Virus record (IMG/VR): IMGVR_UViG_3300009159_005817
Location: 62,001-122,425 of that record
Strand: one strand, 5' to 3'
Source of the DNA: an uncultured virus (IMG/VR IMGVR_UViG_3300009159_005817)
Taxonomy: Duplodnaviria; Heunggongvirae; Uroviricota; Caudoviricetes
Length of the DNA stretch: 60,425 bases
A model generated the notes under the pieces. It had not been told where the DNA came from, did not search any database, and worked only from the letters and a program-made list of their open reading frames with translations. The position numbers and the translations under genes are program-made. Positions 995 to 53,445 of this stretch are shown here, one piece after another; position 1 is the first letter of the stretch, and every line of letters begins with the position of its first letter.

Positions 995-1040
995 TGTTAA
1001 TAACTTTCAATAATTAAATTTTTTTATTCCGCAAAAAAGT
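995..1040 (+). promoter_or_regulatory. composite promoter copy 1, truncated (TATATTTG box missing)
   Basis: TGTTAATAACTTT...TTTTTTATTCCGCAAAAAAGT runs straight into the ATG at 1041. Confidence 0.6.
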
Positions 1041-1265
1041 ATGACAAAAGAAAAATTAGATAAGGAATTACGAGAGCTTGCCGTGGGCGCAATCGATGCT
1101 GGAGACATAGACGATTCAATGGCATTCGATATTGCGGATGGCTGGCTAATGGATAATCCAACCGCGAATGCAGCGATCAAGAAGTACTATGGCGCAAGCG
1201 ATGCACAAGGCTTTGTGGCCAATCGAATCTGTTGGCCTAACGTCCGAAACTTACTTAACCCTTAA
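1041..1265 (+). CDS. hypothetical protein
   Basis: 74-aa ORF. Confidence 0.55.
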   Translation: MTKEKLDKELRELAVGAIDAGDIDDSMAFDIADGWLMDNPTANAAIKKYYGASDAQGFVANRICWPNVRNLLNP

Positions 1266-1292
1266 AACCAATTAACATGACAACCCAGGAGA

Positions 1293-1892
1293 ATGATAGA
1301 CAATCTAGAAATAATAAAGAGCATTCTTAATTTCCAGAAGCGAGGTGACTTCTATATGTTATACGTTTTCAAACGCAAGAAAGATCAACCTGAAGGAGAA
1401 CGTAATAATCATCAATCAGTAAGAACTATTAAAACTTATTGCATCGAAAGTATCGATCATCTAGAAAGACGATACGATGAAATCCGTCAAATGTGCGAAA
1501 TGTTTAAAGCCCGAGCATATATACATGTACAAAAGCAAAATCACTTTGATGTTTCTCTTAATATGATGGTTGCACTTGCTCAACGAATTCAAGATGGAAA
1601 CGTCAATCAAAAAGGTTTATTCGATTCGGTTGTTGGTCAAATCAAAACGCAAGAAAAACTTTGGATAGTCGATATCGATACACAAGATCTACAAGAACTA
1701 AGAAACATTCAAGTAACTATTAATCAATGCAAACCAGAAGGACCAAAAACTAAATACATCGTTCCAACTAAAAACGGATGGCATTTAATTACTGATCGTT
1801 TCGACGTATTAGAATTTTCAAAGAAACATCCTGAAGTAGATATCCAAAAGAAGAACCCTACTTTATTATATTTACCTAATAGCTTATCTTAA
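1293..1892 (+). CDS. conserved phage protein, possible AEP/primase-polymerase-like fold
   Basis: hhhDhD (WIVDID) and PTKNGWH motifs resemble AEP motifs I/II. Confidence 0.5.
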   Translation: MIDNLEIIKSILNFQKRGDFYMLYVFKRKKDQPEGERNNHQSVRTIKTYCIESIDHLERRYDEIRQMCEMFKARAYIHVQKQNHFDVSLNMMVALAQRIQDGNVNQKGLFDSVVGQIKTQEKLWIVDIDTQDLQELRNIQVTINQCKPEGPKTKYIVPTKNGWHLITDRFDVLEFSKKHPEVDIQKKNPTLLYLPNSLS

Positions 1893-1894
1893 AT

Positions 1895-1950
1895 TGTTAA
1901 TAACTTTTTACGAAAACAGTTTTTTATTCCACAAAAAAGTATTATATTTA
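1895..1950 (+). promoter_or_regulatory. composite promoter copy 2
   Basis: TGTTAATAAC at 1895, TTTTTTATTCC, TATATTTA at 1943 (48 bp). Confidence 0.8.
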
Positions 1951-1973
1951 TACTATAATTAAATACTCAAAAT

Positions 1974-2264
1974 ATGAAAAACTTTCGAATCGTTATTAAA
2001 TGTCAAGGTGGTTTCTTAACTATCATCGATAAAAAAACTGAATCCGTAATGGATATTATGAAATCTTTCGTAACACCAAAAACTATTCTAACAATCGAAC
2101 AAAAATCCGAAGCATCTGATAATTACTTTACGGTATTCGCAACTAAAGGTTCTAAAGTACATATCGCTTCAAAAGAAATTTACGATTCAAACTATATTCA
2201 ATCATATTGGCCAACAACCGATATGAACAGAATTGGTAAACCAGTAACCGAATGGAGAAACTAA
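1974..2264 (+). CDS. hypothetical protein
   Basis: ORF directly after conserved promoter. Confidence 0.65.
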   Translation: MKNFRIVIKCQGGFLTIIDKKTESVMDIMKSFVTPKTILTIEQKSEASDNYFTVFATKGSKVHIASKEIYDSNYIQSYWPTTDMNRIGKPVTEWRN

Positions 2265-2277
2265 AAACAAAACATAT

Positions 2278-4707: not shown

Positions 4708-4763
4708 TGTTAATAACTTTTAGACTCGAAATTTTTTAATCTCAAGTTTTTGTATTATATTTG
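4708..4763 (+). promoter_or_regulatory. composite promoter copy 3
   Basis: TGTTAATAAC at 4708, TATATTTG at 4756 (48 bp). Confidence 0.8.
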
Positions 4764-4792
4764 TTATATTAAATTCATATAAAATATACAAC

Positions 4793-12994: not shown

Positions 12995-14017
12995 ATGCAA
13001 ATCTCTAATTATTTTAGTAAAGACAATCACCAAAGAGAAAGTAAACTCTTTGGTGAATTGTTATATTGTGGACACACTCAGCTAGTCCCACGAAATTTAG
13101 ATTATTCAGTTTTAGCTAATACTGATAATCGATGGACTCTCATCAATAGAGATTATCAATATTTCATACAATCAAATGTTTGCTTACATCGACAAGGTGA
13201 AATTTGTAGTGGAAGCGGAAGCGGTAAAACGATGATGTGTAAAGCTCATTGTTGGACATATGACGTTGATGGTAAAATAAAAGGAACTCCTCATTTTGAA
13301 GAGAAGGTTGTTGGTGCACTAGAAAGAAAATCCCTAATCAATTTGAATGGTGCTCTTTTTTCAGGTCATGTGAATAATCTTATAGATCTAAAAGAAACTG
13401 GAGTAGATCATCTTATAGACCTTCATAAATATGATTTTGATAGCTCATCAAAGACAGAATATGCATTTAATTGGAAAACTTTCGCTGAGGTTTATTTAGA
13501 AAATCTTCACATCTATGCAATGCATCCTGGATTACGTAAATTTGTAGATCCGCAAATACTCGAATGGCAATTTGGTCAACAATGGTCACTACAAAAAATT
13601 GGTATTCGTCCTGATCTAAATGGTAATGATTCTGCATCATATACTGATATGATAGACTCTCTTAAACGAGACGGTATCACACCGGAATTTGGAGCAGTTT
13701 GGATTTACATATATCCTAATATCATGATTGAATGGTACCCTAAAACAATTGCCATCTCTACCATTTATTCACCTGAACCAGAAGTTACCACCAATTATGT
13801 AGATCTTTTCTTTGAGAAAGGAACCACTGAAGAATTTAAAGAGATATTCAAACGAGTATACGCTGAAACGGCATTAGAAGACGAAGAAGCCTGTAGTATT
13901 ATACATCGTGGTCGAAGAGCACTTTGGTTAAATGGAGAAACTGAAGGTGGACCCGTTCAACCTAAGCTAGAAGCCGGAGTAAAACACTTTTGGGATTGGT
14001 ATAGCGATCAATCATAA
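12995..14017 (+). CDS. Rieske non-heme iron oxygenase alpha subunit (choline-monooxygenase-like)
   Basis: CLH...CKAHCW Rieske ligands; NWK, ENLHIYAMH and EDEEAC mononuclear Fe ligands. Confidence 0.88.
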   Translation: MQISNYFSKDNHQRESKLFGELLYCGHTQLVPRNLDYSVLANTDNRWTLINRDYQYFIQSNVCLHRQGEICSGSGSGKTMMCKAHCWTYDVDGKIKGTPHFEEKVVGALERKSLINLNGALFSGHVNNLIDLKETGVDHLIDLHKYDFDSSSKTEYAFNWKTFAEVYLENLHIYAMHPGLRKFVDPQILEWQFGQQWSLQKIGIRPDLNGNDSASYTDMIDSLKRDGITPEFGAVWIYIYPNIMIEWYPKTIAISTIYSPEPEVTTNYVDLFFEKGTTEEFKEIFKRVYAETALEDEEACSIIHRGRRALWLNGETEGGPVQPKLEAGVKHFWDWYSDQS

Positions 14018-14038
14018 CTTATTAACAATCAAATAAAT

Positions 14039-14062
14039 AGTCGATCTTAATGATTGACTTTT
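14039..14062 (+). terminator. putative intrinsic terminator
   Basis: AGTCGATC-TTAAT-GATTGACT followed by T run. Confidence 0.45.
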
Positions 14063-14084
14063 GTCATATAAATAAAAAATCAAT

Positions 14085-15070: not shown

Positions 15071-15091
15071 CAATTAATCGAGAAGGAGTTC

Positions 15092-15120
15092 AGAGAGGGT
15101 TCTAACGAACCCTCTCTTTT
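15092..15120 (+). terminator. intrinsic terminator
   Basis: Perfect 11-bp stem AGAGAGGGTTC-TAAC-GAACCCTCTCT then TTT. Confidence 0.8.
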
Positions 15121-15146
15121 CATATAAATTAAATATTCCTTATAAA

Positions 15147-16542: not shown

Positions 16543-16776
16543 ATGCAATATTATATAGGCATATTACCAGAAGATCGAGGTCGACTTAGATCCACGATAG
16601 AGTTTTTAAATGACAATCCCAATTGGCGATGGCAGGTTAAAGTCTTATCAGAATTTGACGATCCTGATGGATATTATACATTCCAAATGGAAGGGAATGA
16701 GGAGACTTATCGACACTTTCTTCGACTCTCTACTAACGAAGGATTTGTCAAATCTCTTAATCATTATGAAGAGTAG
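16543..16776 (+). CDS. hypothetical protein
   Basis: 77-aa ORF. Confidence 0.55.
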   Translation: MQYYIGILPEDRGRLRSTIEFLNDNPNWRWQVKVLSEFDDPDGYYTFQMEGNEETYRHFLRLSTNEGFVKSLNHYEE

Positions 16777-17023
16777 TTGGTTCGTTTATATAGTTCGTTG
16801 CTCTGATGGAACTCTGTATACCGGAATCACCGTTGACCTTCAAAAACGAGTGGCCTCTCACAACTCCAAGAAAGGAGCTAAATATACTGCGACTCGAACT
16901 CCTGTCGAGTTAGTTTGGTCTCAACCTTCAGAAACGAGATCCACTGCCGCGAAAGAAGAGTGGAGAATAAAACAGCTTTCCCGTACAGAAAAACTCGCCT
17001 TAATAGATAATCTTATATTATAA
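16766..17023 (+). CDS. GIY-YIG nuclease, UPF0213/YhbQ-like
   Basis: WFVYIVRCSDGTLYTGIT..L.KRV..HN..KGAKYT..R.PVEL; start re-placed at MKSSW. Confidence 0.88.
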   Translation: MKSSWFVYIVRCSDGTLYTGITVDLQKRVASHNSKKGAKYTATRTPVELVWSQPSETRSTAAKEEWRIKQLSRTEKLALIDNLIL

Positions 17024-17504: not shown

Positions 17505-17560
17505 TGTTAATAACTTTCTCACAAAACATTTTTTTATTACAACCTTTTTTATTATATTTG
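17505..17560 (+). promoter_or_regulatory. composite promoter copy 4
   Basis: TGTTAATAAC at 17505, TATATTTG at 17553 (48 bp). Confidence 0.8.
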
Positions 17561-17586
17561 TATATACATAATAACTAATACACTAT

Positions 17587-17865
17587 ATGGAAGAACAAGA
17601 AGATTTTAATCAGGAACTCGATCCTGTACAAAAGGCCGAGTTAGAATTACAATATCAAGAAGAAATAGGAAAGGCCATGAGAAGTGCATTTGCTTATATA
17701 GAGGAAGATCTAGGCTGGGAGGCTTGGATCGAGAATCGAGTGATTGGTGACGCGGCCAAGAAGCGGAGAATCCTCGATAATATGATGAAATGGTTTGCTT
17801 CTCCAGAGGTGGAGGAATATGAGAAATCCGCTCGCATCAAAAGGGCTATTGATACTCTCGTATAG
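17587..17865 (+). CDS. hypothetical protein with C-terminal UVR-like motif
   Basis: EEYEKSARIK..I. Confidence 0.55.
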   Translation: MEEQEDFNQELDPVQKAELELQYQEEIGKAMRSAFAYIEEDLGWEAWIENRVIGDAAKKRRILDNMMKWFASPEVEEYEKSARIKRAIDTLV

Positions 17866-17867
17866 GT

Positions 17868-17945
17868 TGTTAATAACTTTGTTAATAAGTTTTGAAACAA
17901 ATAGTAAAATAAATTTTTTTATTCCACAAATAAGTATTATATTTA
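17868..17945 (+). promoter_or_regulatory. composite promoter copy 5 (two tandem boxes)
   Basis: TGTTAATAA at 17868 and 17880; TATATTTA at 17938 (58 bp from the second box). Confidence 0.75.
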
Positions 17946-17977
17946 TATATTATTTAATTAACTTAAAAAAGATCTAT

Positions 17978-18232
17978 ATGCAAATCAATCAAATTAAAAC
18001 CGGTTCCTTTATTCGTAACAGCGGTGGATTTACCTTCCACGTAACACTTACCGAGAAGTTCGCTCACCTTCACCCTATCGATGATAACACATCTACCTCA
18101 ACGAAGGTACTACCTATAGCGGTATTCAATCAGTTAATTCGTAATCACAACTTCGTTACCGTTACCAATCCCAATAACGCACACGAAAGAATTCTTACTA
18201 AATCATATGGATCAAGATTATTAACACAATAA
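17978..18232 (+). CDS. hypothetical protein
   Basis: Start re-placed at MQINQ after the promoter. Confidence 0.6.
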   Translation: MQINQIKTGSFIRNSGGFTFHVTLTEKFAHLHPIDDNTSTSTKVLPIAVFNQLIRNHNFVTVTNPNNAHERILTKSYGSRLLTQ

Positions 18233-18288
18233 TGTTAATAACTTTCCCATCAAACATTTTTTTATACCAAAAAAAAGTATTATATTTA
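18218..18288 (+). promoter_or_regulatory. composite promoter copy 6 (inverted pair of boxes)
   Basis: TTATTAACA(18218)-caataa-TGTTAATAAC(18233); TATATTTA at 18281 (48 bp). Confidence 0.8.
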
Positions 18289-18328
18289 TACTATATTTAA
18301 AAATCAAATAAAACAAAAAAAATCAATT

Positions 18329-18990: not shown

Positions 18991-19052
18991 AATACATATA
19001 ATAATAAACCACTCCACTCTCACACAGACGGTGGACTAAAAACAACCAATCA

Positions 19053-20141: not shown

Positions 20142-20185
20142 GAGTAAGGAACTGCGAGTGGAGAAAACCACTCTAATTTGATAAT

Positions 20186-20223
20186 ACCACTAAGGCTGCT
20201 CACTAGAGTGGCCTTTTTGTGGT
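20186..20223 (+). terminator. intrinsic terminator
   Basis: AAGGCTGCTC-ACTA-GAGTGGCCTT then TTT; outer ACCAC/GTGGT pairing. Confidence 0.7.
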
Positions 20224-20239
20224 TTACACAGCGAGACTG

Positions 20240-33907: not shown

Positions 33908-33963
33908 TGTTAATAACTTTCCCGTAATAAATTTTTTTATTCCAAAAAGTTTTATTATATTTG
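33908..33963 (+). promoter_or_regulatory. composite promoter copy 7
   Basis: TGTTAATAAC at 33908, TATATTTG at 33956 (48 bp). Confidence 0.8.
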
Positions 33964-33988
33964 TATATACAATTTAAACAAATATACT

Positions 33989-34183: not shown

Positions 34184-34496
34184 ACGAAGAAGCGATCGTA
34201 ACCATCTCATCTACAAAATAGAAAATCTCTCAACCGGAGAATTCTATATAGGAGTTACAGTCGTAACCGGTAGAGCATATCTTAAATCTCTTAAATCTCG
34301 ATGGAAGCGACATATCTATAAAGCAATGGTGCTTCGTGAAGAATGGTTATTTCCAAAAGCGATTCGCGAATATGGCGAATCTCAATTTAAACCTGAGATT
34401 ATCGAAATTGTACGTGGTAAATCTACCGCATTCGGAAGAGAATCTCAACTTATTAACGAAATCCGACCAGCATACAACACACGAATGAAATGTTAA
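34176..34496 (+). CDS. GIY-YIG nuclease-domain protein
   Basis: LIYKIEN...EFYIG.T...RWKRH...AIREYG...E..LI...P.YN. Confidence 0.8.
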   Translation: MHKRRSDRNHLIYKIENLSTGEFYIGVTVVTGRAYLKSLKSRWKRHIYKAMVLREEWLFPKAIREYGESQFKPEIIEIVRGKSTAFGRESQLINEIRPAYNTRMKC

Positions 34497-34567
34497 TAAC
34501 TTTTTTACATTTAGCCAAAAATAAGTTTCAAAAAATTTTTTTATTCCAATAAAAAGTATTATATTTG
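34491..34567 (+). promoter_or_regulatory. composite promoter copy 8, upstream of the DnaA domain-IV gene
   Basis: TGTTAATAAC at 34491, TATATTTG at 34560 (69 bp = 48+21). Confidence 0.78.
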
Positions 34568-34606
34568 TTATATCAATTTAATATTAATCTTTTAAACTCA
34601 AAAAAT

Positions 34607-34918
34607 ATGAAATCTAAATCAAGTATCGAAAAAATTGCTGCAATTCAATCATTAGTATCGAAATCATTTAACATCGAACTACCTAAATTACTTTCACCAT
34701 CTCGTACTGGTGAAATTGCATACATTCGCCAAATATCAATGTATCTATGCAGATTCAACACAACCGCTTCTCTTAAAATAATTGCGGCCGAACATAATCG
34801 TACTAATCACGGTACCGTTATCCATGCTTCCGAAGTAATTGGATTCGATTATCGCAAAAACGAAAAAGTACGTAATCAAATCATCGCATTAGAAACCCAA
34901 ATTAAAACAATAGCATAA
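34607..34918 (+). CDS. stand-alone DnaA domain IV (DnaA C-terminal HTH DNA-binding) protein
   Basis: IQSLVSKSFNI....LLSPSRT.EIA..RQISMYLCR..T.ASLK.I....NR.NHGTVIHA aligns along its length with DnaA domain IV; no AAA+ domain. Confidence 0.85.
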   Translation: MKSKSSIEKIAAIQSLVSKSFNIELPKLLSPSRTGEIAYIRQISMYLCRFNTTASLKIIAAEHNRTNHGTVIHASEVIGFDYRKNEKVRNQIIALETQIKTIA

Positions 34919-34920
34919 TC

Positions 34921-35175: not shown

Positions 35176-35177
35176 AT

Positions 35178-36380: not shown

Positions 36381-36384
36381 TCAA

Positions 36385-36493
36385 GCAACCTTTATTACTG
36401 AATCTGACCTGTGATTTTTAACATATAACCTTTATCTAAGGTGATCGAGGAAATAATATAGTTCTTCAGGCAGATTAGGTAATTCAAGGTTAC
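36385..36493 (+). ncRNA. putative structured intergenic RNA (long imperfect hairpin)
   Basis: Nested pairings AACCTT/AAGGTT, ATTAC/GTAAT, AATCTG/CAGATT, CCTG/CAGG. Confidence 0.45.
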
Positions 36494-36555
36494 TCCATCA
36501 TACTCATATAATTTATACATTTATCTATAGAATTACGACTAATCAAAAACAAAAT

Positions 36556-37020
36556 ATGGCAAAGACTAAAAAACAAATCGTTGAGCTTACTCCGGTTGAA
36601 CGAGTATTCGCTGCATTCATGGAAGATTTCAATGATACTGAATTACAAGAAAGACTAGATGGATTTGAAAGAACTCTTAAATCTCTAAAGGCTCGTTACA
36701 ATGAATTAGTTCCTAATTTGAATGATGCTTTGAGAGATCAAACAATTTTAAACAAAATGATTTTGGATTCGGCTAAAATGAGTTTCATTAATAACGATGC
36801 TTTCAAGAGACTTAAGATTGTGGATTCATATCTAGACGAGAACATGGAACTTGCCAATGATCTTAAAAGTAAAATACAATCCGAAGAAGATCTTATCCGA
36901 AAATATAAAGAGAATTCACATGATCGTCTTTTTCGATGGTGGCAATCTATTAAAGCCGTAGAACCTAACACTATCCCTTGGTTAGAATGGAAAATCATGT
37001 ATGATTCCAAGATAATTTAA
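36556..37020 (+). CDS. coiled-coil hypothetical protein
   Basis: 154-aa helical ORF; CATATAAT at 36505. Confidence 0.6.
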   Translation: MAKTKKQIVELTPVERVFAAFMEDFNDTELQERLDGFERTLKSLKARYNELVPNLNDALRDQTILNKMILDSAKMSFINNDAFKRLKIVDSYLDENMELANDLKSKIQSEEDLIRKYKENSHDRLFRWWQSIKAVEPNTIPWLEWKIMYDSKII

Positions 37021-37023
37021 AAA

Positions 37024-37079
37024 TGTTAATAACTTTCCATCAATAAATTTTTTTATTCCACTTATTTGTTTTATATTTG
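37024..37079 (+). promoter_or_regulatory. composite promoter copy 9
   Basis: TGTTAATAAC at 37024, TATATTTG at 37072 (48 bp). Confidence 0.8.
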
Positions 37080-37103
37080 TATATACAATTTAAAACAATA
37101 TAT

Positions 37104-37364
37104 ATGCGAACACATGCTTCAACAACTTACTTCGAAACGCAATCATCCGCTTTAAACGAAGCATTTCAACACGTTCAATCTCGAGGTTATTTGGTAAACG
37201 AACCCGATAATCTATGGACTGAACATGTTTCATACGGAACAACCGTTCACTATAATCTTCCTCTTATTCTCGAACGAACAGGTAATCCTGCTCGTAAATG
37301 GTTGCATGTAAATCTTCATCGTATGGATTCAGGAAGATATGAATTAAACTACTACTTAAATTAA
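37104..37364 (+). CDS. hypothetical phage protein
   Basis: Ends HRMDSGRYELNYY. Confidence 0.6.
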   Translation: MRTHASTTYFETQSSALNEAFQHVQSRGYLVNEPDNLWTEHVSYGTTVHYNLPLILERTGNPARKWLHVNLHRMDSGRYELNYYLN

Positions 37365-37370
37365 TAAATC

Positions 37371-37598
37371 ATGATAAGAAAAAAAGAAGAACAAACCGGA
37401 CCTATCGTTATCGATCTTACTGGTCCTGATGGTAATGCATTCGCCATAATCTCATATGCAAATCGTTTCGCAAAACAAATGGAAATGCAACCAAACGATC
37501 GAGCACAAATGAATACCGATCTTATGTCTGGAGATTATGAACATCTCCTTCAAGTATTCGATAAGCACTTTGGTGAATTCGTTATTCTTGAACGATAA
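37371..37598 (+). CDS. conserved phage protein
   Basis: IDLTGPDGNAF...SGDYEHLL motif. Confidence 0.65.
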   Translation: MIRKKEEQTGPIVIDLTGPDGNAFAIISYANRFAKQMEMQPNDRAQMNTDLMSGDYEHLLQVFDKHFGEFVILER

Positions 37599-37603
37599 AA
37601 AAA

Positions 37604-37659
37604 TGTTAATAACTTTTTGTCAAAATATTTTTTTATTCCACAAATTTGTTTTATATTTG
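37604..37659 (+). promoter_or_regulatory. composite promoter copy 10
   Basis: TGTTAATAAC at 37604, TATATTTG at 37652 (48 bp). Confidence 0.8.
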
Positions 37660-37689
37660 TTATATCAAATTAATTAAAAAATCATATAC

Positions 37690-38784
37690 ATGGAAGCAAT
37701 CCAATTAACAAATGCTCAAATCCTCAAAGCTGAAAAACGTCATGAACGTTCGAGATTTGCAGATAAGTATCAGCTAAAAAACCCATACAATGGAACTGAA
37801 TATTTGTTCCGTGGAATATGGCGTTCAAATCGAGAATTTATTATTTCTCGAGGAACAGAAACTTATTTGGTACCATTTGATAATGTGAATCCAAATCCAA
37901 CAAACGCAAAAATCGAATCTGCTGAGAATCGCAAAATCGAATTGGTACTTATTGATGATCTACATTATGATGATCGTATCTTTCAACCAATGCGAACCGG
38001 AACCCCAATCGATTACATGTTTTCAAACGATGGTGGAATTTATCCGGCTACAAATTACATGGTTATCGGTGATCCTGGCATTGGGAAATCTACACAAACA
38101 CTTGATCTCCTTGCAAAAATCAAAAAGAACGAACCTCATCGAAAAATACTTTTCATCTCTGGCGAAATGAATCAAATCGATATGTATGGTTATGTTAAAC
38201 GTTATCCATCATTCGGTAAAATACCTACTCTCTTCCTTTGTGATTATCTAGACGAGGATCCTAAAGAAATCATCGAACAAACATTTAATCAAGGTTGGGA
38301 TATCATCCTTATCGATTCATTTATCGAAGTTCAAGAATCCGTTCAAGCTTCTTCAAATATGACAAGAACTGCAGCAGAAAAATGGTTAATCGATATGATG
38401 GTCACTCAAAATAAAGGAAACAATGAAGCAAATCTATTTACATCCGTACTTGCAATTCAACAAGTAACTAAGGGTGGTAATTTCGTTGGTTCCAATAAAT
38501 TAAAACATAATACAACCGGTATGATCGAATTAAGATACTCATCCGAATTTACCGGTGATCGTTATGCTAAGGTAACTAAAAATCGTCGAGGTTTCAAATA
38601 CGAAAAAATATACTTCTCTCTTGATAATCCACTCGAAGTAGAATACGATCAAAAACGACTTGAACGAGATGAAGAAATTCGTAAACGTTTACAACGTGAA
38701 AAAGAAACTCTTCTTTCCGAGGAAGAGAAATTCAATAAGATTTTCGGTATCATACAACCGGAATTAACCGAAACAGAAAATTAA
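37690..38784 (+). CDS. RecA-superfamily ATPase, RadA/Sms-like (no Lon domain)
   Basis: GDPGIGKS Walker A, ISGEM, ILIDS Walker B, QVTKGG.FVGS..LKH, KNRRG. Confidence 0.85.
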   Translation: MEAIQLTNAQILKAEKRHERSRFADKYQLKNPYNGTEYLFRGIWRSNREFIISRGTETYLVPFDNVNPNPTNAKIESAENRKIELVLIDDLHYDDRIFQPMRTGTPIDYMFSNDGGIYPATNYMVIGDPGIGKSTQTLDLLAKIKKNEPHRKILFISGEMNQIDMYGYVKRYPSFGKIPTLFLCDYLDEDPKEIIEQTFNQGWDIILIDSFIEVQESVQASSNMTRTAAEKWLIDMMVTQNKGNNEANLFTSVLAIQQVTKGGNFVGSNKLKHNTTGMIELRYSSEFTGDRYAKVTKNRRGFKYEKIYFSLDNPLEVEYDQKRLERDEEIRKRLQREKETLLSEEEKFNKIFGIIQPELTETEN

Positions 38785-38824
38785 TCAATAATCCATAAAC
38801 AAACAAAATCAAAAATAAATAATT

Positions 38825-39337
38825 ATGCAAGCTACAAAAGCAACACCAGTAAGAAAAGATCGCGATCTAATGCGTCAAAAATCTAATGCCAGTCCTGTTC
38901 TCCTTAAACATTGGGAAGCTAATTACACACATTTTCATCGTAATGTAATTAATCCATCATTGTTAAAACAGGAAGATCTTGGCCTTGAATTTAAACATAA
39001 AGAAAGAACTTTTAAAATTATCGGAATGACTTCTATTTGGACAATGATCGTCGAAGAGATTCGCGAACCAGGAATGAAACCGGTGTATTGGGAATGTTCT
39101 CGACATTTTGTTCAATTCGCATTAGGCCGTAAAATTCAAGAGTACTTCAAAATTAAAGGAAAGATACATGAACGTCCTAGAGATTATGATGCAGTGCAAT
39201 TATATCTTCCACCAATTTCCGTTCTTAGAAAATTGAAAATTGATAAGGATGAAGATGAAATTCAAGAAACTAAACCTAAATTCGAGATCTTTCAAGAAGA
39301 CAACACAAAGGACGATTACAATAACGAATACGAATAA
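38825..39337 (+). CDS. hypothetical protein
   Basis: 170-aa ORF. Confidence 0.6.
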   Translation: MQATKATPVRKDRDLMRQKSNASPVLLKHWEANYTHFHRNVINPSLLKQEDLGLEFKHKERTFKIIGMTSIWTMIVEEIREPGMKPVYWECSRHFVQFALGRKIQEYFKIKGKIHERPRDYDAVQLYLPPISVLRKLKIDKDEDEIQETKPKFEIFQEDNTKDDYNNEYE

Positions 39338-41139: not shown

Positions 41140-41153
41140 CAAAGATAGCCGCC

Positions 41154-41226
41154 TGTTGATGTGTATATTACCTTATTAGGAATCTATTATATGTGATATG
41201 CACATCAACACTGGTCTTCTTTTTTT
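41154..41226 (+). terminator. long hairpin followed by U-tract (terminator or processing stem)
   Basis: TGTTGATGTGTATATTAC pairs with GTGATATGCACATCAACA, including G-U pairs; T run follows. Confidence 0.55.
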
Positions 41227-41249
41227 AATTCATCTTACATATAATAAAT

Positions 41250-42848: not shown

Positions 42849-42866
42849 ATCTCGGTAATAATTAAA

Positions 42867-42922
42867 TGTTAATAACTTTTTTCAAAAAGATTTTTTTATT
42901 CCGCAAAGATTTATTATATTTG
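42867..42922 (+). promoter_or_regulatory. composite promoter copy 11
   Basis: TGTTAATAAC at 42867, TATATTTG at 42915 (48 bp). Confidence 0.8.
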
Positions 42923-42946
42923 TATATACCATTTAATAATAAACAT

Positions 42947-43198
42947 ATGAAAATCAAAAACCAAACCAAAACCGTAATCAAATCTGAAATTTTATCAATC
43001 GCCGAAGAAATGTCTGCTAATGATTTTATCAACGAATTTAGTAGTCTATTAACATTTGAAGATATTGATAATTTACTCGATGTAAATGAAGGATTTACTA
43101 ATGTTTCTATCGAAGTAAAAGATGGTAAAAAATATTTAAAAAATGAAACCATCTTCATCTTATTTTGCGATGGTAAATTCGATTCATACTCAAATTAA
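42947..43198 (+). CDS. hypothetical protein
   Basis: Start re-placed at MKIKNQ after the promoter. Confidence 0.55.
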   Translation: MKIKNQTKTVIKSEILSIAEEMSANDFINEFSSLLTFEDIDNLLDVNEGFTNVSIEVKDGKKYLKNETIFILFCDGKFDSYSN

Positions 43199-44407: not shown

Positions 44408-44446
44408 TAAATGAACATCATATAATATTAAACTAATTAACACAAA

Positions 44447-44707: not shown

Positions 44708-44787
44708 GCCCTTATGGTGGAATTGGTAGACATGCCAGACTTAGGATCTGGTGCTTAGGCGTGTAGGTTCGAGTCCTACTAAGGGTA
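44708..44787 (+). tRNA. tRNA-Leu(TAG), CCA not encoded
   Basis: GCCCTTA/TAAGGGT acceptor, CCAGA-CTTAGGA-TCTGG anticodon arm, long variable arm, GGTTCGAGTCC. Confidence 0.93.
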
Positions 44788-45127: not shown

Positions 45128-45199
45128 TGCGGGATAGAGCAGTGGTAGCTCGGCGGGCTCATAACCCGTAGGTCGCAGGTTCGAATCCTGCTCCCGCTA
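45128..45199 (+). tRNA. initiator tRNA-fMet(CAT), CCA not encoded
   Basis: 1:72 mismatch, three consecutive G-C pairs in the anticodon stem (CGGG-CTCATAA-CCCG), GGTTCGAATCC. Confidence 0.93.
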
Positions 45200-49986: not shown

Positions 49987-50967
49987 ATGAAAAAGGCTCT
50001 TATTACCGGGATCAACGGTCAAGATGGATCTTATCTCGCATCTTTTCTTTTAGATAAAGGGTATGAGGTATGGGGTACTCTTAAACGTAATTCGGTTGCA
50101 GAAAATCAAACCGTTCGTATTGAACATATATTCGACAAATTAAATCTAGAGTATTGTGACGTTACGGATTTAGCTTCGATTATAAGCGTGGTTTCTAAAG
50201 TTCGACCGGATGAAATTTACCATTTGGCAGCGCAATCGCATGTTCGTATCTCATTCGATCAACCTATCTACACAGCAAATGCAACTGGTATTGCATCTCT
50301 AAATATTTTTGAAGCGGTTAGATTGATCGATCCAAAAATCAAAATTTATCAAGCATCATCTTCAGAGATGTTTGGAAATTCAATTGATCCTGATGGATTT
50401 CAACGAGAAACAACTCCGCTAAATCCTGTATCACCTTATGGTTGTGCTAAAGTATTTGCATATAACATTGCAAGAAATTACCGAAACTCATATGGAATGT
50501 TTATCTCTAATGGAATTCTATTTAATCATGAATCTCCTTTTAGAGGAACTAACTTTGTAACCAACAAAGTATGTAAGGAAGCCGTTAAAATTAAAATGGG
50601 ATTATCAAACAAATTAAAATTAGGAAATTTAGATGCATCAAGAGATTGGGGCCACGCAAAAGATTATGTTAAAGCAATGTGGGCGATTCTTCAAAATAAC
50701 AAAGCAGACGATTTCGTTTTTGCTACCGGAATATCACATACAGTTAGAGATCTTGTGGAATATGTATTTGGAAGCCTTGATTTGGACTGGAATCAATACG
50801 TTGAAGTCGATGAAAAATTCCTTCGTCCGGAAGAGTTACATCACCTCAAAGGCGATCCAACGAAAATTCAAAGCATAATTAAATGGGAGAAAGAGTATAC
50901 ATTTGAAACAATGTTAGATGAAATGATCGAGTACTGGGAAAATTATTATTCTCCAAAAAGCTTATAA
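49987..50967 (+). CDS. gmd: GDP-mannose 4,6-dehydratase
   Basis: ITGINGQDGSYL, AAQSHV, QASSSE, SPYGCAK, FNHESP, RDWGHA.DYV. Confidence 0.95.
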   Translation: MKKALITGINGQDGSYLASFLLDKGYEVWGTLKRNSVAENQTVRIEHIFDKLNLEYCDVTDLASIISVVSKVRPDEIYHLAAQSHVRISFDQPIYTANATGIASLNIFEAVRLIDPKIKIYQASSSEMFGNSIDPDGFQRETTPLNPVSPYGCAKVFAYNIARNYRNSYGMFISNGILFNHESPFRGTNFVTNKVCKEAVKIKMGLSNKLKLGNLDASRDWGHAKDYVKAMWAILQNNKADDFVFATGISHTVRDLVEYVFGSLDLDWNQYVEVDEKFLRPEELHHLKGDPTKIQSIIKWEKEYTFETMLDEMIEYWENYYSPKSL

Positions 50968-50987
50968 TAAATATAAATCTAAAAATA

Positions 50988-51212
50988 ATGAGTTTTAATA
51001 AACGATACCTAAGCGAAGATTCTATTAGATCTCATGCAAAATCAAATCCAGATTCATTCCATTGGTTTGAAAGATACATGGTTTATGCCGATGCATATAT
51101 CATTGATACCACTAAAGGAGATTTTGCCGAAAAGATATACGAGAAATTCGGTGAAGGAAATGAAGAAGTAAGAAGAGAAATACACAGACAATTAGTAAAT
51201 GACGAAATATGA
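50988..51212 (+). CDS. hypothetical protein
   Basis: 74-aa ORF. Confidence 0.55.
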   Translation: MSFNKRYLSEDSIRSHAKSNPDSFHWFERYMVYADAYIIDTTKGDFAEKIYEKFGEGNEEVRREIHRQLVNDEI

Positions 51213-51967
51213 AAATAACAAAACCTATCGTATTCTTCGATATCGAATCAACCGGAATTAATACTACCCGTGATCGTATTGTAGAATTACAAATGATTAA
51301 AGTTACTGCCAATGGTGAAGAGGAATGGTATTCTAAATTCAATCCTCATCCAGTAGTAATTTCTGATGAAGCTGCATCTGTTCATGGTATCTCAAATGAA
51401 GATGTTATGGATGCTCCTAAATTCGAAGAACGAGCAAAAGATATTTTAGCCTTTATTGAAGGTTGTGATTTAGCTGGATATAACATTCAGAATTTTGACA
51501 TTCCTATGTTATTCGAAGAATTTTGTAGAGCTAATACTTTATTCGATTGGAAGAAACATCGTCTTCTAGATTCATATGCACTTTGGACTTATTTCGAACC
51601 TCGAACTTTGACTGGTGCAGTTGAACGTTTTCTCGGTGAGAAATTTGAAAATGATAACTCTGCAAAATGGGACGTGGATGCAACTAAACGAGTATTCTTT
51701 AAACAAATGGAAACTTACAAATTTACTGAATCGGATTTCGACGACGTTATTGAAAAATCTAAAAAAGACAATCGAATAGATTTGACCGGTAAATTCGTTA
51801 AGAAAGATAATAACGTATTCTATGGATTTGGTAAATATAATGGAAAATCCGTAATGGAAATTAATAAAGTAGATCCAGGATATCTTGATTGGATTGCCAA
51901 TAAATCTGAGTTATCTATGGATTGTAAAATGATTGCTAAAAAATTAATCACTCACATAAACAAATAA
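51209..51967 (+). CDS. DEDD 3'-5' exonuclease (DnaQ/ExoX-like) with C-terminal FGKY module
   Basis: FFDIESTG, VHGIS, GYN..FD, FGKYNG...DPGYLDW. Confidence 0.88.
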   Translation: MKITKPIVFFDIESTGINTTRDRIVELQMIKVTANGEEEWYSKFNPHPVVISDEAASVHGISNEDVMDAPKFEERAKDILAFIEGCDLAGYNIQNFDIPMLFEEFCRANTLFDWKKHRLLDSYALWTYFEPRTLTGAVERFLGEKFENDNSAKWDVDATKRVFFKQMETYKFTESDFDDVIEKSKKDNRIDLTGKFVKKDNNVFYGFGKYNGKSVMEINKVDPGYLDWIANKSELSMDCKMIAKKLITHINK

Positions 51968-51968
51968 T

Positions 51969-52334
51969 ATGGAAGATATACAATTATCAAAATCCTTTTC
52001 AGATGATGGAAATACTCCTAATGCATCTAAAGCTCTTAGCTCATACTTGAGTATATGGGTTACCAGTGAACCAATTGGAATTAAAATTATTCCTTCAGGT
52101 TGGACCGATCCTAGAATGTATCATGTTCTAGTTGAATGGGGTGATACAAACGAAACGGATTATCATTTTCTAGATGCGGATCAAATCAAAGAACAAATGG
52201 GTATTGATATATCCGAAAATGATTTTGTTTCGTATATAGTAACAAATGATGAGCTATTAGAAAACTCAAATGATTATGACTTAGGATCGAAAATTAGAAG
52301 CACTCTATATAAAAATGATAAAACCGGTAAATAA
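51969..52334 (+). CDS. hypothetical protein
   Basis: 121-aa ORF. Confidence 0.55.
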   Translation: MEDIQLSKSFSDDGNTPNASKALSSYLSIWVTSEPIGIKIIPSGWTDPRMYHVLVEWGDTNETDYHFLDADQIKEQMGIDISENDFVSYIVTNDELLENSNDYDLGSKIRSTLYKNDKTGK

Positions 52335-53388
52335 TATAAGACGTAGCATTGAACTCACTAATCTCTATGATATGGGTGAAAAAATGTGGTGGAAAGATAA
52401 TGACCATATGTTTTCCAATTGGAGACGTAAGAATTTCATAGTAAATGAAAAGGTCTGGAATGATTGGGTAGATAAAAATGTCGATATTGAATGTTGTGAA
52501 TTGAAGACTCGTGATGTCGTAGAGAATTATGCCGGTAGAACTAAAACCGTAAATTCTACAATTTTTACATGTGGAGTTTCTACTCCAAGTGAAGGTGAAA
52601 TCGAAATTGAATATGTTCATCTTCGTTGGGATTTGAAGAGAGGAAACGATGCAGTTAAGAAAATGATTACGGAAATAGAAGATATGTGTATTATACACAA
52701 AGAAAAATCTTCTGTTCAATTGCTAGTTAAAGATAATGGAGATCTTGATCTTCGAGCTTTTGAAATTCATAAACCGAATATCGATCTAAAAATGAATTAT
52801 GATGATGAATGGAATGATAAACATAATTATCTCATGAATCAACTTAACATGAAGGAAAAAAAAGGAATTGTTCTTCTTCATGGACATCCTGGAACTGGAA
52901 AGACAATGTATATTCGACACCTTATTTCTTTGTTATCTGAAAAGAGAACCGTCATATATCTTCCTAATCAGCTAATCGATTCATTAACAGATCCTTCATT
53001 TATTCCTTTGTTATCTGATTATAGTGGATCTATTATAATTATTGAAGATGCCGATGAAGCTATTCGATCTAGAAAAACTGGTGGTGCATCAGTTGATAAA
53101 TTACTTAATCTAGCCGATGGTATACTTTCAGATTTTCTAGGCATTCAATTTATCTGTACATTTAATTGCCCTATTACTACAATCGATGATGCTCTACTTC
53201 GTAAAGGTCGCCTAATCTTCCGACATGAATTTGATAAACTTCCAATCGCGAAAGCTCAGGCATTAAGCGATCATTTAGGTTTTGATACTAAAATTGACAA
53301 AGCCATGACACTTGCCGAAATCTATAATCAAGAGAAGAAATTTAGCGAAGAAGATAAATTAGATAAAAAACGAATAGGCTTTTATTAA
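52315..53388 (+). CDS. AAA+ ATPase
   Basis: GHPGTGKT, IIIED, LLNLADG, DDALLRKGR. Confidence 0.9.
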   Translation: MIKPVNNIRRSIELTNLYDMGEKMWWKDNDHMFSNWRRKNFIVNEKVWNDWVDKNVDIECCELKTRDVVENYAGRTKTVNSTIFTCGVSTPSEGEIEIEYVHLRWDLKRGNDAVKKMITEIEDMCIIHKEKSSVQLLVKDNGDLDLRAFEIHKPNIDLKMNYDDEWNDKHNYLMNQLNMKEKKGIVLLHGHPGTGKTMYIRHLISLLSEKRTVIYLPNQLIDSLTDPSFIPLLSDYSGSIIIIEDADEAIRSRKTGGASVDKLLNLADGILSDFLGIQFICTFNCPITTIDDALLRKGRLIFRHEFDKLPIAKAQALSDHLGFDTKIDKAMTLAEIYNQEKKFSEEDKLDKKRIGFY

Positions 53389-53389
53389 T

Positions 53390-53445
53390 TGTTAATAACT
53401 TTTTGTCAATAAAGTTTTTTATTCCACAAATTTTTATTATATTTG
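53390..53445 (+). promoter_or_regulatory. composite promoter copy 12
   Basis: TGTTAATAAC at 53390, TATATTTG at 53438 (48 bp). Confidence 0.8.

Follow-up and report, generated by a model that had tools for sequence, protein, structure and literature searches.

The cassettes described here resemble the PeSL (promoter-early stem-loop) cassettes of T4-type phages (PMC4122927). Both kinds are found in T4-like phages as repeated composites between genes: the upstream part is AT-rich, an early promoter of host type follows, in many cases with a stem-loop, and a conserved leader and the start codon complete the cassette. Both are concentrated among small ORFs in variable regions, with few in structural blocks. 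PeSLs as described (PMC4122927) have neither an invariant 12-13-bp upstream word nor a reported helical phasing, whereas the present cassettes have both. The stem-loop is optional in the present cassettes, with two clear cases in 23; a possible shuffling role was looked at through contig break-points.

At the rRNA promoters of E. coli and the early promoters of T4, UP elements are read by the RNA polymerase alpha C-terminal domain. The box that recurs in the present cassettes has in common with them a position at about -60 to -40, an AT-rich composition, a presumed strengthening of host-type promoters and a tolerance of whole-turn displacement, and each is used heavily by a T4-type phage; the box differs in being a fixed, orientation-specific word that includes G and C, and in its presence at promoters for replication and division where ribosomal ones would be expected. 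T4 middle promoters carry a MotA box at -30, used with AsiA. Like the present cassettes, they and the PmSL variants (PMC4122927) are a phage-wide class with an extra DNA word beside a -10-type element, a word that in the present cassettes too would be read by a DNA-binding protein; the Mot box, however, replaces the -35 element, while the present box lies about 30 bp further upstream.

DnaA is described as a transcription factor that in some cases activates by stabilizing RNA polymerase on DNA, and phage lambda transcription as DnaA-dependent (PMC8203912). In the systems covered there, the initiator acts on 9-mer boxes near promoters and may stabilize or contact RNA polymerase. A preprint on T5 advances the hypothesis of DnaA boxes in the injection-stop region and lists TTATTAACA itself as a non-consensus DnaA box (bioRxiv 10.1101/866236); words like the host DnaA box are carried by both T5 and the present phage. 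The present word departs from the DnaA box TTATNCACA at the conserved C6, is invariant and spans 12-13 bp, and it occupies fixed, phased, class-I-like positions at at least 23 promoters.

Promoter cassettes with a phased upstream box

The window, the whole stretch of 60,425 nucleotides analysed here, is part of a 122-kb record that belongs to a T4-like jumbo phage with a genome of at least 256 kb. Its T4 core genes encode a gp32-like SSB, UvsX, UvsY, a DnaB-like helicase, primase, DNA polymerase, clamp loader and an SbcCD-like nuclease, as well as portal, prohead protease, major head protein, terminase, sheath and tube. Among the ORFs scanned against PHROGs there was no multisubunit RNA polymerase and no match to MotA or AsiA; one weak match was to 'Srd anti-sigma / HNH'. 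An ECF-type sigma factor and an Hc1 histone-like protein are encoded in the 122-kb record, outside the window (Pfam). The phage has proteins with T9SS sorting domains, and these, together with the -7 motif, are the indirect hints on which Flavobacteriaceae was taken as the host family; the host most likely lies in or near it.

The 13-mer box TGTTAATAACTTT occurs exactly 12 times in the window, 12/12 on the + strand, with starts at 995, 1895, 4708, 17505, 17868, 18233, 33908, 34491, 37024, 37604, 42867 and 53390; base composition predicts 0.0065 exact + strand copies. Allowing up to two mismatches raises the count to 22, whereas shuffled sequences average 6.5 and 0/100 of them reach 22. The twelve shared intergenic elements of the original prediction are thus real. 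The 122-kb record holds 19 copies and a 254-kb record of the same phage 23 exact copies, all forward, of which only four fall in the first 134 kb; copies are intergenic in the window and in both records, a -7 box, where there is one, follows at 48, 58 or 69-70 bp, and the box begins 0-10 bp after the upstream stop codon. The features of the window are as follows.

995..1040, + strand: truncated cassette; box TGTTAATAACTTT and T-run/ATTCC, no -7 box, abuts ATG 1041
1895..1973, + strand: promoter cassette; box, A-rich spacer, T-run/ATTCC, TATATTT at 48 bp, conserved leader, ATG 1974
4708..4792, + strand: promoter cassette; weak inverted repeat round the T-run (TTTTTTAATCTC), -7 box at 48 bp, ATG 4793
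17505..17586, + strand: promoter cassette; -7 box at 48 bp, ATG 17587
17868..17977, + strand: tandem-box cassette; exact box at 17868 (70 bp to -7 box), TGTTAATAAGTTT at 17880 (58 bp); probable start codon 17978, in frame with ORF 17819-18232
18214..18226, - strand: degenerate inverted box, two mismatches, just upstream of the 18233 box
18233..18328, + strand: promoter cassette; -7 box at 48 bp, ATG 18329
33908..33988, + strand: promoter cassette; -7 box at 48 bp, ATG 33989
34491..34606, + strand: promoter cassette before the mini-DnaA gene; box two helical turns out, at 69 bp, and containing the stop codon of the upstream GIY-YIG ORF
34607..34918, + strand: mini-DnaA, a stand-alone DnaA domain IV of 103 aa (Pfam; aligned to structures)
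37024..37103, + strand: promoter cassette; -7 box at 48 bp, ATG 37104
37604..37689, + strand: promoter cassette; -7 box at 48 bp, ATG 37690 (ATPase-like gene)
42867..42946, + strand: promoter cassette; -7 box at 48 bp, probable start 42947, in frame with ORF 42866-43198
53390..53470, + strand: promoter cassette; -7 box at 48 bp, ATG 53471

Measured from the start of the box, TATATT follows at 48 bp in nine copies (1895, 4708, 17505, 18233, 33908, 37024, 37604, 42867 and 53390), at 69 bp in the copy at 34491, at 70 bp in that at 17868 and at 58 bp in the one-mismatch box at 17880. The spacing first proposed, fixed at 48 bp in nine copies with shifts of one turn (58 bp, 17880) and two turns (69 bp, 34491), is therefore borne out, as are the tandem boxes at 17868/17880, the second being the one-mismatch form, and the truncated copy at 995, which lacks a -7 box and whose T-run runs straight to the start codon. 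The inverted pair claimed at 18233 does have a partner on the - strand, at 18214-18226, but a weak one with two mismatches. Similarly, a T-run/ATTCC tract was said to be shared by all twelve elements; it is present in most copies but not at 4708, which has TTTTTTAATCTC instead, in an inverted repeat that folds at -3.5 kcal/mol, no better than shuffles.

In five clade genomes, the 72 boxes with a downstream -7-like word lie 46-47 bp (50), 57-58 bp (20) or 68-69 bp (2) from it, and none of the 72 lies at any other distance. The spacing is thus conserved across related phages, and these 72/72 phased boxes uphold the proposal of a protein-sized site on one helix face upstream of host-type promoters. 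Of 97 distinct cassettes in other IMG/VR records, 71 have a distance of 46-47 bp, two of 57 bp and three of 30, 41 or 44 bp, and 21 have no -7-like word. In relatives whose core promoters differ, for example a canonical TTTG-N20-TAATTTTA, the box still stands at a distance of 48 bp from the -7 TA. The box, exact or with one or two mismatches, accompanies each of the 25 class-I core promoters found, so that no box-less early promoter would be available to start a cascade. The 11-bp spacer 3' of the box is A-rich. With the -7 box at -12 to -5, as given in PMC9723704, the box covers about -60 to -48.

In the relative G009, which has only two exact boxes, about 13 promoters have another word that contains G+C, ATGTAATATCCGTGTA, in place of the box and are identical in all else. 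Hairpins that enclose or follow the box with a fold of -8 kcal/mol or lower are found in 20/28 cassettes of G007, 8/11 of G008 and 8/23 of this phage, where two of the 23 are strong (-17.5 and -21.8 kcal/mol). The points at which RNA-library contigs of related phages pass into unrelated sequence coincide exactly with boxes, and metatranscriptome contigs of related phages part from the window exactly at the 33908 cassette. RNA-library contigs cover the region; such contigs cannot mark transcription starts.

The same word upstream of host promoters

The host-side scan covered 61 genomes from the family of G012 (locus L193, titled Paenimyroides tangerinum, Flavobacteriaceae). The pattern TGTTAATAA-N38-40-TAnnTTTG (47-49 bp) gave 98 matches in 46/61 genomes, compared with 20 for the reversed control, and the full-turn shift N48-50 (57-59 bp) gave 96 matches in 45/61 genomes (control 16). 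Across the same 61 genomes the half-turn shift N43-45 showed no excess (12 matches, control 18), and the reverse orientation of TGTTAATAA gave 29 matches (control 19).

The matches recur at orthologous promoters, whose genes were identified by Pfam. Upstream of a gene with two HU-CCDC81 domains and a SPOR domain, divergent from dprA, 28 of 30 loci hold the 9-mer 46-47 bp from the -7 box, and the spacers differ while this distance stays. The word also stands at the promoters of dnaX, a Flavin_Reduct gene, the gene of a 60-aa membrane protein and gyrB, in the last case as the phage 12-mer TGTTAATAACTT; the mraZ promoter has the word in reverse orientation. The exact 13-mer is at chance level in four Flavobacteriaceae genomes (1-2 copies, control 0-1). 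Box plus T-run gave 121 matches in cellular genomes, only three with the phage-type -7 word, which marks the full cassette as phage-specific but not the upstream element. From these sequence comparisons, the box turns out to be what looks like an upstream promoter element of host replication and division genes, not a private phage operator. The private phage regulon originally envisaged is contradicted by the same word, orientation and phasing upstream of host promoters (98 + 96 matches, 61 genomes).

A host protein as the probable reader

We consider it probable that the cassettes are early promoters whose upstream activating element is modelled on one of the host and is read by a host protein present at infection. 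Each cassette would comprise a host sigma-A-type promoter, with the -7 box TAnnTTTG and the T-run in place of a -33 TTTG, and an upstream element, TGTTAATAACTT(T), beginning about 60 bp ahead of the start of transcription or farther out by one or two helical turns. This element would have been copied from the host, since the same word stands in the same orientation and at phased distances at gyrB, dnaX, HU-CCDC81/SPOR and other promoters. A sequence-specific host DNA-binding protein, present already at infection, would bind the box and contact RNA polymerase from one helix face, and this contact would drive or tune early phage transcription; the binding, the direction of regulation and the early timing are what we infer. 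Counting against host reading, the box-bearing IMG/VR records examined are all CheckV-estimated pieces of ~200-400 kb genomes, and an element read by the host could be expected to turn up in other kinds of phage as well.

Host DnaA is tentatively the leading candidate for this protein, because the word resembles a DnaA box and the host genes have a replication and division flavour; replisome and division genes are typical DnaA targets (PMC8203912). Co-option of host DnaA, one branch of the original prediction, stays alive because the same word is found at the host gyrB, dnaX, dprA/SPOR and mraZ promoters. Its arithmetic is also correct: TTATTAACA differs from TTWTNCACA at one position. From TTATCCACA it differs at two (7/9 identical). 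A further pointer to DnaA is that box-like words cluster, at 5-8 per 500 bp, in the rpiB-rnr intergenic region of three genomes; in one genome GC skew and coding strand switch no more than about 15 kb from the cluster, the skew being unclear in two of the three. Flavobacteriaceae DnaA has Ala at base-contacting position 435 (contact residues as given in PMC5043019). Against DnaA, the A at box position 6 (C6-to-A relative to the consensus) is invariant in phage and host copies, the conserved word has 12-13 bp and the DnaA box nine, canonical-type TTATTCACA and TTATACACA, not TTATTAACA, stand about 90-100 bp upstream of host dnaA in two of four genomes, and the box is also found at flavin reductase and small membrane protein genes. 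Another host regulator is a possible but less probable reader.

The mini-DnaA protein and alternative readers

The ORF at 34607-34918 matches Pfam Bac_DnaA_C with E 1.4e-18 and 67 bits (cut-off 31.5) and aligns with domain IV of solved DnaA structures, in agreement with its predicted identity as DnaA domain IV alone. We take it to retain the equivalents of R399, H434, T436 and H439, with D433 replaced by N and T435 by G (E. coli numbering). The gene is covered by RNA-library contigs of four runs.

A phage-encoded reader, whether mini-DnaA or another early or injected protein, that activates, autoregulates or shuts off these promoters seems unlikely. In favour of such a reader, Pfam recognises no sequence-specific DNA-binding protein in the window other than mini-DnaA, the mini-DnaA gene lies downstream of a box cassette, and all three clade versions of the protein have D433N and an intact minor-groove Arg and H-x-T-V-x-H helix; moreover, the box was found in only one jumbo-phage group among the IMG/VR records examined. 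Mini-DnaA relatives are encoded by 131 IMG/VR stretches, and a box lies within 4 kb on the gene's strand at 10/13 of the closest mini-DnaA loci but at 1/65 of the more distant ones (IMG/VR). The expected co-occurrence of box and gene therefore stands for the closest loci, but it is confounded by kinship, all those loci being pieces of the same jumbo clade, and it breaks down in the complete, circularly permuted relative G008/G034 (~233 kb), which has 12 phased boxes and zero Bac_DnaA_C matches. A six-frame profile search of this genome for DnaA domain IV gave a best E of 0.36, compared with 1e-40 to 1e-43 in three phages that have the gene, which speaks against mini-DnaA as a necessary part of the box system. 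Likewise, no DnaA domain IV was seen in the fragments G038 (144 kb, 14 boxes), G003 (160 kb, 14 boxes) and G001 (72 kb, 15 boxes), while G009 has the gene yet hardly any exact boxes. The identically phased box in host genomes that carry no phage also argues against a phage reader, and if all early promoters depend on the reader, a protein made only after infection would come too late to set off the cascade.

Direct reading of the box by the RNA polymerase alpha C-terminal domain, as in an UP element and with no separate transcription factor, we likewise regard as improbable. The distal UP subsite in E. coli is about where the box sits (~-60 to -48), an A-rich 11-bp spacer follows, and alpha is on hand at time zero, as uniformly boxed early promoters require. 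Tolerance of whole-turn shifts is expected of displaced UP elements, and here the box is also found one helical turn further out but not half a turn. However, the box is orientation-specific (98 vs 29 matches) and its G and C positions do not vary, the recurrent host promoters found are those of gyrB, dnaX, dprA/SPOR, mraZ and a flavin reductase and not of ribosomal or other very highly expressed genes, and the swap to ATGTAATATCCGTGTA in G009 looks like an exchange of factor sites.

A role outside initiation, as a recombination handle of mobile PeSL-like promoter-terminator cassettes or as an RNA 3'-end signal, would fit the position of the box just past a stop codon, the strong terminator-like hairpins in many relatives' cassettes (G007 and G008) and the contig breaks at boxes, but is very improbable, because helical phasing to the -7 box is a property of double-stranded DNA and a promoter, not of RNA or recombination, and the same word and distances at single-copy host promoters go beyond phage cassette shuffling.

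If a host protein reads the box, mini-DnaA would be an optional accessory to the system rather than its core, and might compete for these boxes or for the DnaA boxes of the host. The 103-aa phage protein is a member of the stand-alone DnaA domain IV proteins (PF08299, Bac_DnaA_C), of which short forms are common: 63 of 151 representatives tallied have at most 160 aa. The phage subfamily has Asn at the highly conserved D433, as do 19 of the 151. To our knowledge, such stand-alone proteins have no known function. One Flavobacteriaceae genome encodes two of them besides its dnaA.

A phased upstream box in the promoter cassettes of the window

The 13-mer TGTTAATAACTTT, referred to here as the box, occurs in 12 exact copies in the window, all on the + strand, while the expectation from base composition is 0.0065 copies on that strand; these copies lie where the original prediction had located them. 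The box starts 0-10 bp 3' of the stop codon of the preceding gene; next come an A-rich 11-bp spacer, a T-run (in most cases TTTTTTTATTCC), some 12 bp, TATTATATTTG, a conserved leader and the ATG. Nine copies have a distance of 48 bp from the box start to TATATT, and this distance is 69 bp at 34491, 70 bp at 17868 and 58 bp for a one-mismatch copy at 17880. The predicted spacings of 48, 58 and 69 bp are thus borne out, as is the truncation of the copy at 995, which is without a -7 part. An inverted partner had been placed at 18218, facing the box at 18233; it is present, but at 18214 and with two mismatches to the box.

The Bacteroidota sigma-A promoter has a -33 element, TTTG, around 19-21 bp upstream of its -7 box. 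In this phage a T-run (TTTTTTTA) takes the place of TTTG at -33, and in some relatives the same box is accompanied by a true TTTG-N20-TAATTTTA. At the -7 position, TATATTT(G/A) is found behind 11 of the 12 exact boxes, the exception being the copy at 995, and as a sequence this agrees with the -7 box TAnnTTTG described at -12 to -5 of sigma-A promoters (PMC9723704). No convincing hairpins were found in the 12 cassettes of the window, which fold no better than shuffled sequences; two strong hairpins are present elsewhere in this phage, outside the window, and hairpins are frequent but variably placed in the related jumbo-phage records G007 (20 of 28 cassettes) and G008 (8 of 11). Contigs from four RNA libraries span parts of 33000-39000, including the gene for the 103-aa protein discussed below as mini-DnaA; such contigs are uninformative on starts, strand and level.

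All 25 class-I core promoters found in this phage have the box or a near variant of it. The sole promoter-like class that we noticed besides this box-bearing class is CATATAA(T/A), located 10-25 nt upstream of start codons in intergenic regions that are free of the box. It resembles the T4 late promoter TATAAATA and probably marks late genes. Example regions in the window are:

14018-14084, CATATAA(T/A) class
15071-15146, CATATAA(T/A) class
18991-19052, CATATAA(T/A) class
21092-21162, CATATAA(T/A) class
41140-41249, CATATAA(T/A) class
44408-44446, CATATAA(T/A) class

The box is retained across a clade of jumbo phages

Scanning IMG/VR for the box followed by a T-run returned at least 123 stretches, with a TTATATT-type word at the right place in 98 of the 128 instances listed; in cellular genomes the scan returned at least 120 stretches, and the word was found in 3 of 121 instances among the matches listed. 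Each viral record examined after the scan is, by CheckV estimate, a piece of a genome of ~200-400 kb, and the proteins shared among box-bearing phages have median identities of 40-54%, which together indicate a single jumbo-phage clade. The records hold 2-28 boxes each, strongly biased to one strand, compared to 0-1 for the reversed-word control. The core promoter varies between members of the clade while the box stays, with TTATATTTGTATATAC, TTATATTTACAT, GATTAGTTTTAC or the canonical TTTG-N20-TAATTTTA downstream of it.

For 72 boxes with a -7-like word in five genomes, the distance between the two is 46-47 bp (50 boxes), 57-58 bp (20) or 68-69 bp (2), and none of the 72 has such a word downstream at any other distance. 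The longer classes occur in several unrelated sequence contexts. The phased distances support the binding of something to one face of the helix, as had been proposed for the window.

On ~13 promoters of the related record G009 (about 163-214 kb, loci L261-L263) the core promoter is unchanged and the upstream word is another one, ATGTAATATCCGTGTA, with AATAAA or CCTTTT after it. Inside this word TGTAATA recurs with an 11-bp period. Counted upstream from the -7 box, the first TGTAATA begins at 58 bp and the second TGTA at ~47 bp, which are the phases of the box in its 9-mer form, TGTTAATAA. The word looks like a swapped factor site, and G009 retains a TGTTAATAA-type box on a few promoters, one of them before its sigma gene. 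A separate arrangement, unlike the cassettes, is seen in two other IMG/VR records (G023, about 31.9-32.2 kb; G032, about 101.8-102.0 kb), where four boxes form two inverted pairs in less than 200 bp; this arrangement looks origin-like.

The same word is phased in Flavobacteriaceae promoters

In four Flavobacteriaceae genomes the exact 13-mer is no more frequent than expected by chance. Of 201 genomes of the family, 40 have a 10-mer at the phage spacing from the -7 consensus, with 48 matches in all compared with 10 for a reversed control; many of the 48 represent one orthologous locus. The 9-mer TGTTAATAA, a gap and TAnnTTTG were counted in 61 Flavobacteriaceae genomes, with the reversed word as the control.

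Matches to TGTTAATAA at defined gaps from TAnnTTTG in 61 Flavobacteriaceae genomes
TGTTAATAA, gap N38-40: 98 matches (46 genomes); control 20
TGTTAATAA, gap N43-45 (half turn): 12 matches; control 18
TGTTAATAA, gap N48-50 (full turn): 96 matches (45 genomes); control 16
Reverse complement of TGTTAATAA, gap N38-40: 29 matches (about half from a single locus); control 19

The occurrence of the same word at phased distances in host promoters (98 and 96 matches against 20 and 16) identifies the phage box as a host upstream promoter element, which the phage appears to use at the host's own phased positions. A regulon private to the phage is not compatible with these counts.

Several host loci recur, and their genes were checked against Pfam. 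Divergent from dprA is a gene whose product has one SPOR and two HU-CCDC81 domains. In front of it, 28 of 30 loci place the 9-mer at 46-47 bp from the -7 box across a variable intervening sequence, and the box is also retained in more distant genomes (44-47% protein identity). The others are dnaX; gyrB, whose promoters contain the phage's 12-mer TGTTAATAACTT and, in the two loci inspected, an inverted repeat between box and -7 box like that of many phage cassettes; a flavin-reductase-like gene; a 60-aa membrane protein; and mraZ, where a reverse-orientation box lies beside three GTGGTAAA-type repeats, which we take to be MraZ sites. Rfam found nothing in nine host promoter loci. We found no description of the upstream element TGTTAATAA in full-text literature searches, nor, supplements aside, in the Flavobacterium transcription-start map (PMC9723704); literature matches to TGTTAATAAC are genome-editing tag oligonucleotides, and TGTTAATAA with Flavobacterium gave nothing relevant.

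Box-like words are also clustered in the intergenic region between the diverging genes rpiB and rnr, at 5-8 per 500 bp in three genomes (L460, L462, L464). In one of the three (G058) this cluster is less than ~15 kb from a switch in GC skew and coding strand, and is a candidate chromosomal origin. No box cluster was found next to host dnaA in four genomes, and the host-origin pattern TTATCCACA-N1-40-TGTGGATAA had no matches in three genomes, a result that is uninformative as an origin test. As a separate observation, a perfect 20-bp palindrome of two boxes, TTATTAACAATTGTTAATAA, is conserved in seven Flavobacteriaceae genomes (L461, L463, L465-L467, L469, L471). Six of the seven have the palindrome between rplS (L19) and the gene for a monomeric-type isocitrate dehydrogenase, in most of those six directly after the hairpin that trails rplS.

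Phased boxes are kept without the phage DnaA domain IV

The product of ORF 34607-34918 matches Pfam Bac_DnaA_C with an E-value of 1.4e-18 and 67.1 bits (cut-off 31.5) over profile positions 2-67 of 69, and can be aligned to a DnaA chain of solved structure at residues 349-446. By these alignments the ORF encodes, as predicted, a stand-alone DnaA domain IV (mini-DnaA). With its contact positions numbered in what we take to be the E. coli scheme, mini-DnaA retains the equivalents of R399, H434, T436 and H439; D433 is replaced by N, and T435 by G or A. In E. coli DnaA, bases are contacted by residues 399, 423, 432-435 and 438-439 (PMC5043019). DnaA of host Flavobacteriaceae has A at 435 and retains D433. 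Three mini-DnaAs of the clade resemble its domain IV, retaining the minor-groove arginine and the H-x-T-V-x-H helix, with Asn at D433. D433 is said to read DnaA-box position 7 (PMC8235120); the idea that D433N switches specificity at box position 6 is not supported, as position 7 is unchanged and Asn is also present in some full-length relatives.

The original prediction coupled the box regulon to mini-DnaA, as a factor that autoregulates, competes or shuts the promoters off. A box is present within 4 kb in 10 of the 13 closest mini-DnaA relatives in IMG/VR, versus 1 of 65 more distant ones, but these close loci all belong to the same jumbo clade, so the association reflects kinship and not independent co-occurrence. 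The related records G008 and G034 bear directly on this point. The first 3 kb of G034 map to G008 from position 21,245 onward and its last 3 kb to G008 19,120-22,125; its end overlaps its own start by ~880 bp, and the 12 boxes of one record correspond in position to those of the other as a circular permutation. The overlap and the permuted positions indicate a complete genome of ~233 kb. This genome has 12 phased boxes, and a family search of it found no DnaA domain IV; a six-frame profile search with filters off gave a best E-value of 0.36, as against 1e-40 to 1e-43 in G007, G009 and G006, a longer record of the phage studied here. The mini-DnaA is therefore unnecessary for keeping the box in phase, and the regulon is not centered on it. 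Stand-alone domain IV proteins are common: 63 of 151 representatives tallied are no longer than 160 aa, and one Flavobacteriaceae genome encodes two besides dnaA.

A host protein is the probable reader of the box

Since every class-I promoter is boxed, the reader must be present at DNA entry, and would be a protein of the host or, with lower probability, one injected by the phage. Our best reading, which we consider probable, is that a sequence-specific host protein would bind at about -60 or -70 and help RNA polymerase, and that the phage would have copied the site of this protein in near-invariant form.

Host DnaA is the leading candidate for this protein, and we put it forward tentatively. 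The box is identical to TTATCCACA at seven of nine positions, box-like clusters are present in the rpiB-rnr region, one of them near the skew and coding-strand switch, and the box-bearing host genes are of the kind regulated by DnaA elsewhere, where the targets named include replisome components and the ftsL/division promoter region, with activation via stabilisation of RNA polymerase (PMC8203912). Flavobacteriaceae DnaA also has Ala at contact position 435 (contacts as in PMC5043019). Against DnaA, the DnaA-box consensus (TTATNCACA / TTWTNCACA) is not matched, since the box's reverse complement, TTATTAACA, has A for the conserved C at position 6, and this A is invariant in all phage and host copies; the conserved word extends over 12-13 bp; canonical-type boxes are found upstream of host dnaA in two of four genomes; the skew signal is ambiguous in two of three genomes; and the box is also present at non-replication genes. 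In its fullest form, with Flavobacteriaceae DnaA reading TTATTAACA as a phased class-I activator of gyrB, dnaX, dprA/SPOR and mraZ and the T4-like jumbo clade making use of it, the proposal is doubtful. It would wire 12-30 early promoters per phage genome to DnaA; early transcription would sense the state of the host's replication initiator, and the numerous phage boxes would drain DnaA from the chromosome. The D433N domain-IV-only DnaA of some members would be a competitor that later switches the promoters off, or a blocker of the host origin.

That the reader is a host regulator other than DnaA is, in our estimate, somewhat less likely than host DnaA. A phage-encoded reader, mini-DnaA included, is improbable; phylogenetic profiling and Pfam searches of conserved small proteins gave no DNA-binding candidate. 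The chance is similarly slight that the alpha-CTD of RNA polymerase reads the box as an UP-like element. UP elements, which T4 early promoters have, are AT-rich, lie between about -40 and -60 and act via alpha-CTD, and the box fits in position and composition. A purely recombinational or RNA-level role is very improbable given the phasing in single-copy host promoters.

Two further candidates were rejected. Use of the box as a -35 element by a phage sigma factor of the ECF type does not agree with a box-to-T-run spacing that varies by 10 and 21 bp, nor with a would-be -10 that differs between phages. Promoters of a phiKZ-type virion RNA polymerase, whose consensus TATATTAC (PMC7058600, Table 2) is similar to the -7 part in some relatives, were set aside, as the phage is T4-like and PHROGs showed no multisubunit RNA polymerase in the ORFs that were scanned.

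To our knowledge, little has been learned of how Bacteroidota promoters are built beyond the -33 and -7 boxes. If our reading is correct, TGTTAATAA would be an upstream promoter element of Flavobacteriaceae at about -60 or -70, helix-phased and orientation-specific, that marks replication and division genes. Uncultured jumbo phages would then build early promoters by copying a host regulatory site and hold it more constant than the core promoter itself. The cassette would offer a ready-made, strong and portable promoter design for Flavobacterium genetics and a concrete test of whether a replication initiator serves as a phage early-gene activator, and a testable target sequence would become available for the stand-alone DnaA domain IV proteins that phages commonly encode.

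Comparison with known phage promoters

The cassettes have a counterpart in the PeSL elements of T4-type phages (PMC4122927), promoter-terminator cassettes that work alike and are also repeated early-promoter units between small ORFs. T4 early promoters, with their UP elements, are a further likeness. The stem-loop directly upstream of the PeSL promoter is lacking from the 12 cassettes of the window, and an invariant phased upstream word common to host promoters sets the present cassettes apart from both PeSL and T4 early promoters. In the MotA-dependent middle promoters of T4 an activator box centered at -30 replaces the -35/-33 element, and T4 encodes MotA and AsiA. The present box is ~30 bp further upstream, outside that class, and no PHROG match to MotA or AsiA was found among the ORFs scanned, which in the first 134 kb were those of at least 120 aa. 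The nearest cases of phage use of host DnaA sites are lambda, in which DnaA stimulates transcription (PMC8203912), and T5, for whose injection stop arrays of DnaA boxes have been proposed (10.1101/866236); as presented in those sources, neither involves a genome-wide promoter class, unlike the present boxes.

The phage genome and its host

A 122,425-bp record with 19 exact boxes, all on the + strand, has the window as its second half. This record is contained in G006 (254,393 bp, CheckV 83%) from position 133,815 on. G006 has 23 boxes, all forward, just four of which are in its first 134 kb, so that 19 cassettes lie in the 122-kb variable half versus four in the 134-kb core half. The core half encodes the T4 core set, comprising gp32-like SSB, UvsX, UvsY, DnaB-like helicase, primase, DNA polymerase, a clamp loader, an SbcCD-like nuclease and ribonucleotide reductase, together with portal, prohead protease, major head protein, terminase, sheath and tube. 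No near-identical record turned up when 20 kb were compared by megablast with the GenBank phage collection. An ECF-type sigma factor (Sigma70_r2 and r4_2, 199 aa) is encoded at 24035-24721 of the 122,425-bp record, upstream of the window, and is preceded by a variant box cassette. Each of the four relatives compared has a homologue, with a box just upstream in three of three checked (G008, G001 and G009, the last with two exact boxes in total).

Phage proteins with type IX secretion sorting domains (Por_Secre_tail and CHU_C), together with the -7 motif, indicate a Bacteroidota host. Two large proteins end in such a domain and would go through the Bacteroidota-specific secretion system of the host. 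These, the unusual cargo and the tRNA genes are:

Window 28937-33904, large protein ending in CHU_C, with a PKD domain
122,425-bp record 24845-26767, large protein ending in Por_Secre_tail, with a Cohesin domain
Window 24931-25305, SET-domain protein
Window 12995-14017, Rieske ring-hydroxylating oxygenase
Window 16610-17023 and 34176-34496, two GIY-YIG homing-endonuclease-like ORFs
122,425-bp record 50378-50554, Hc1 histone H1-like protein, 58 aa
Window 44708-44787 and 45128-45199, two tRNA genes (Rfam RF00005, 57.5 and 68.9 bits)

Rfam found nothing in the whole window beyond the two tRNAs. A 75-aa protein (window 37371-37598, PHROG 1933) is unusually well conserved, with 57-65% identity in the relatives G007, G008 and G001, and no counterpart was found in G009, where TGTTAATAA boxes are few. 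In one RNA-library contig (run X1), 35243 is linked to 36350 and 1106 nt within the 400-aa ORF 35178-36380 are missing; Rfam found no intron family at 35243-36350, and the gap may reflect either a deletion in a strain or a spliced element.
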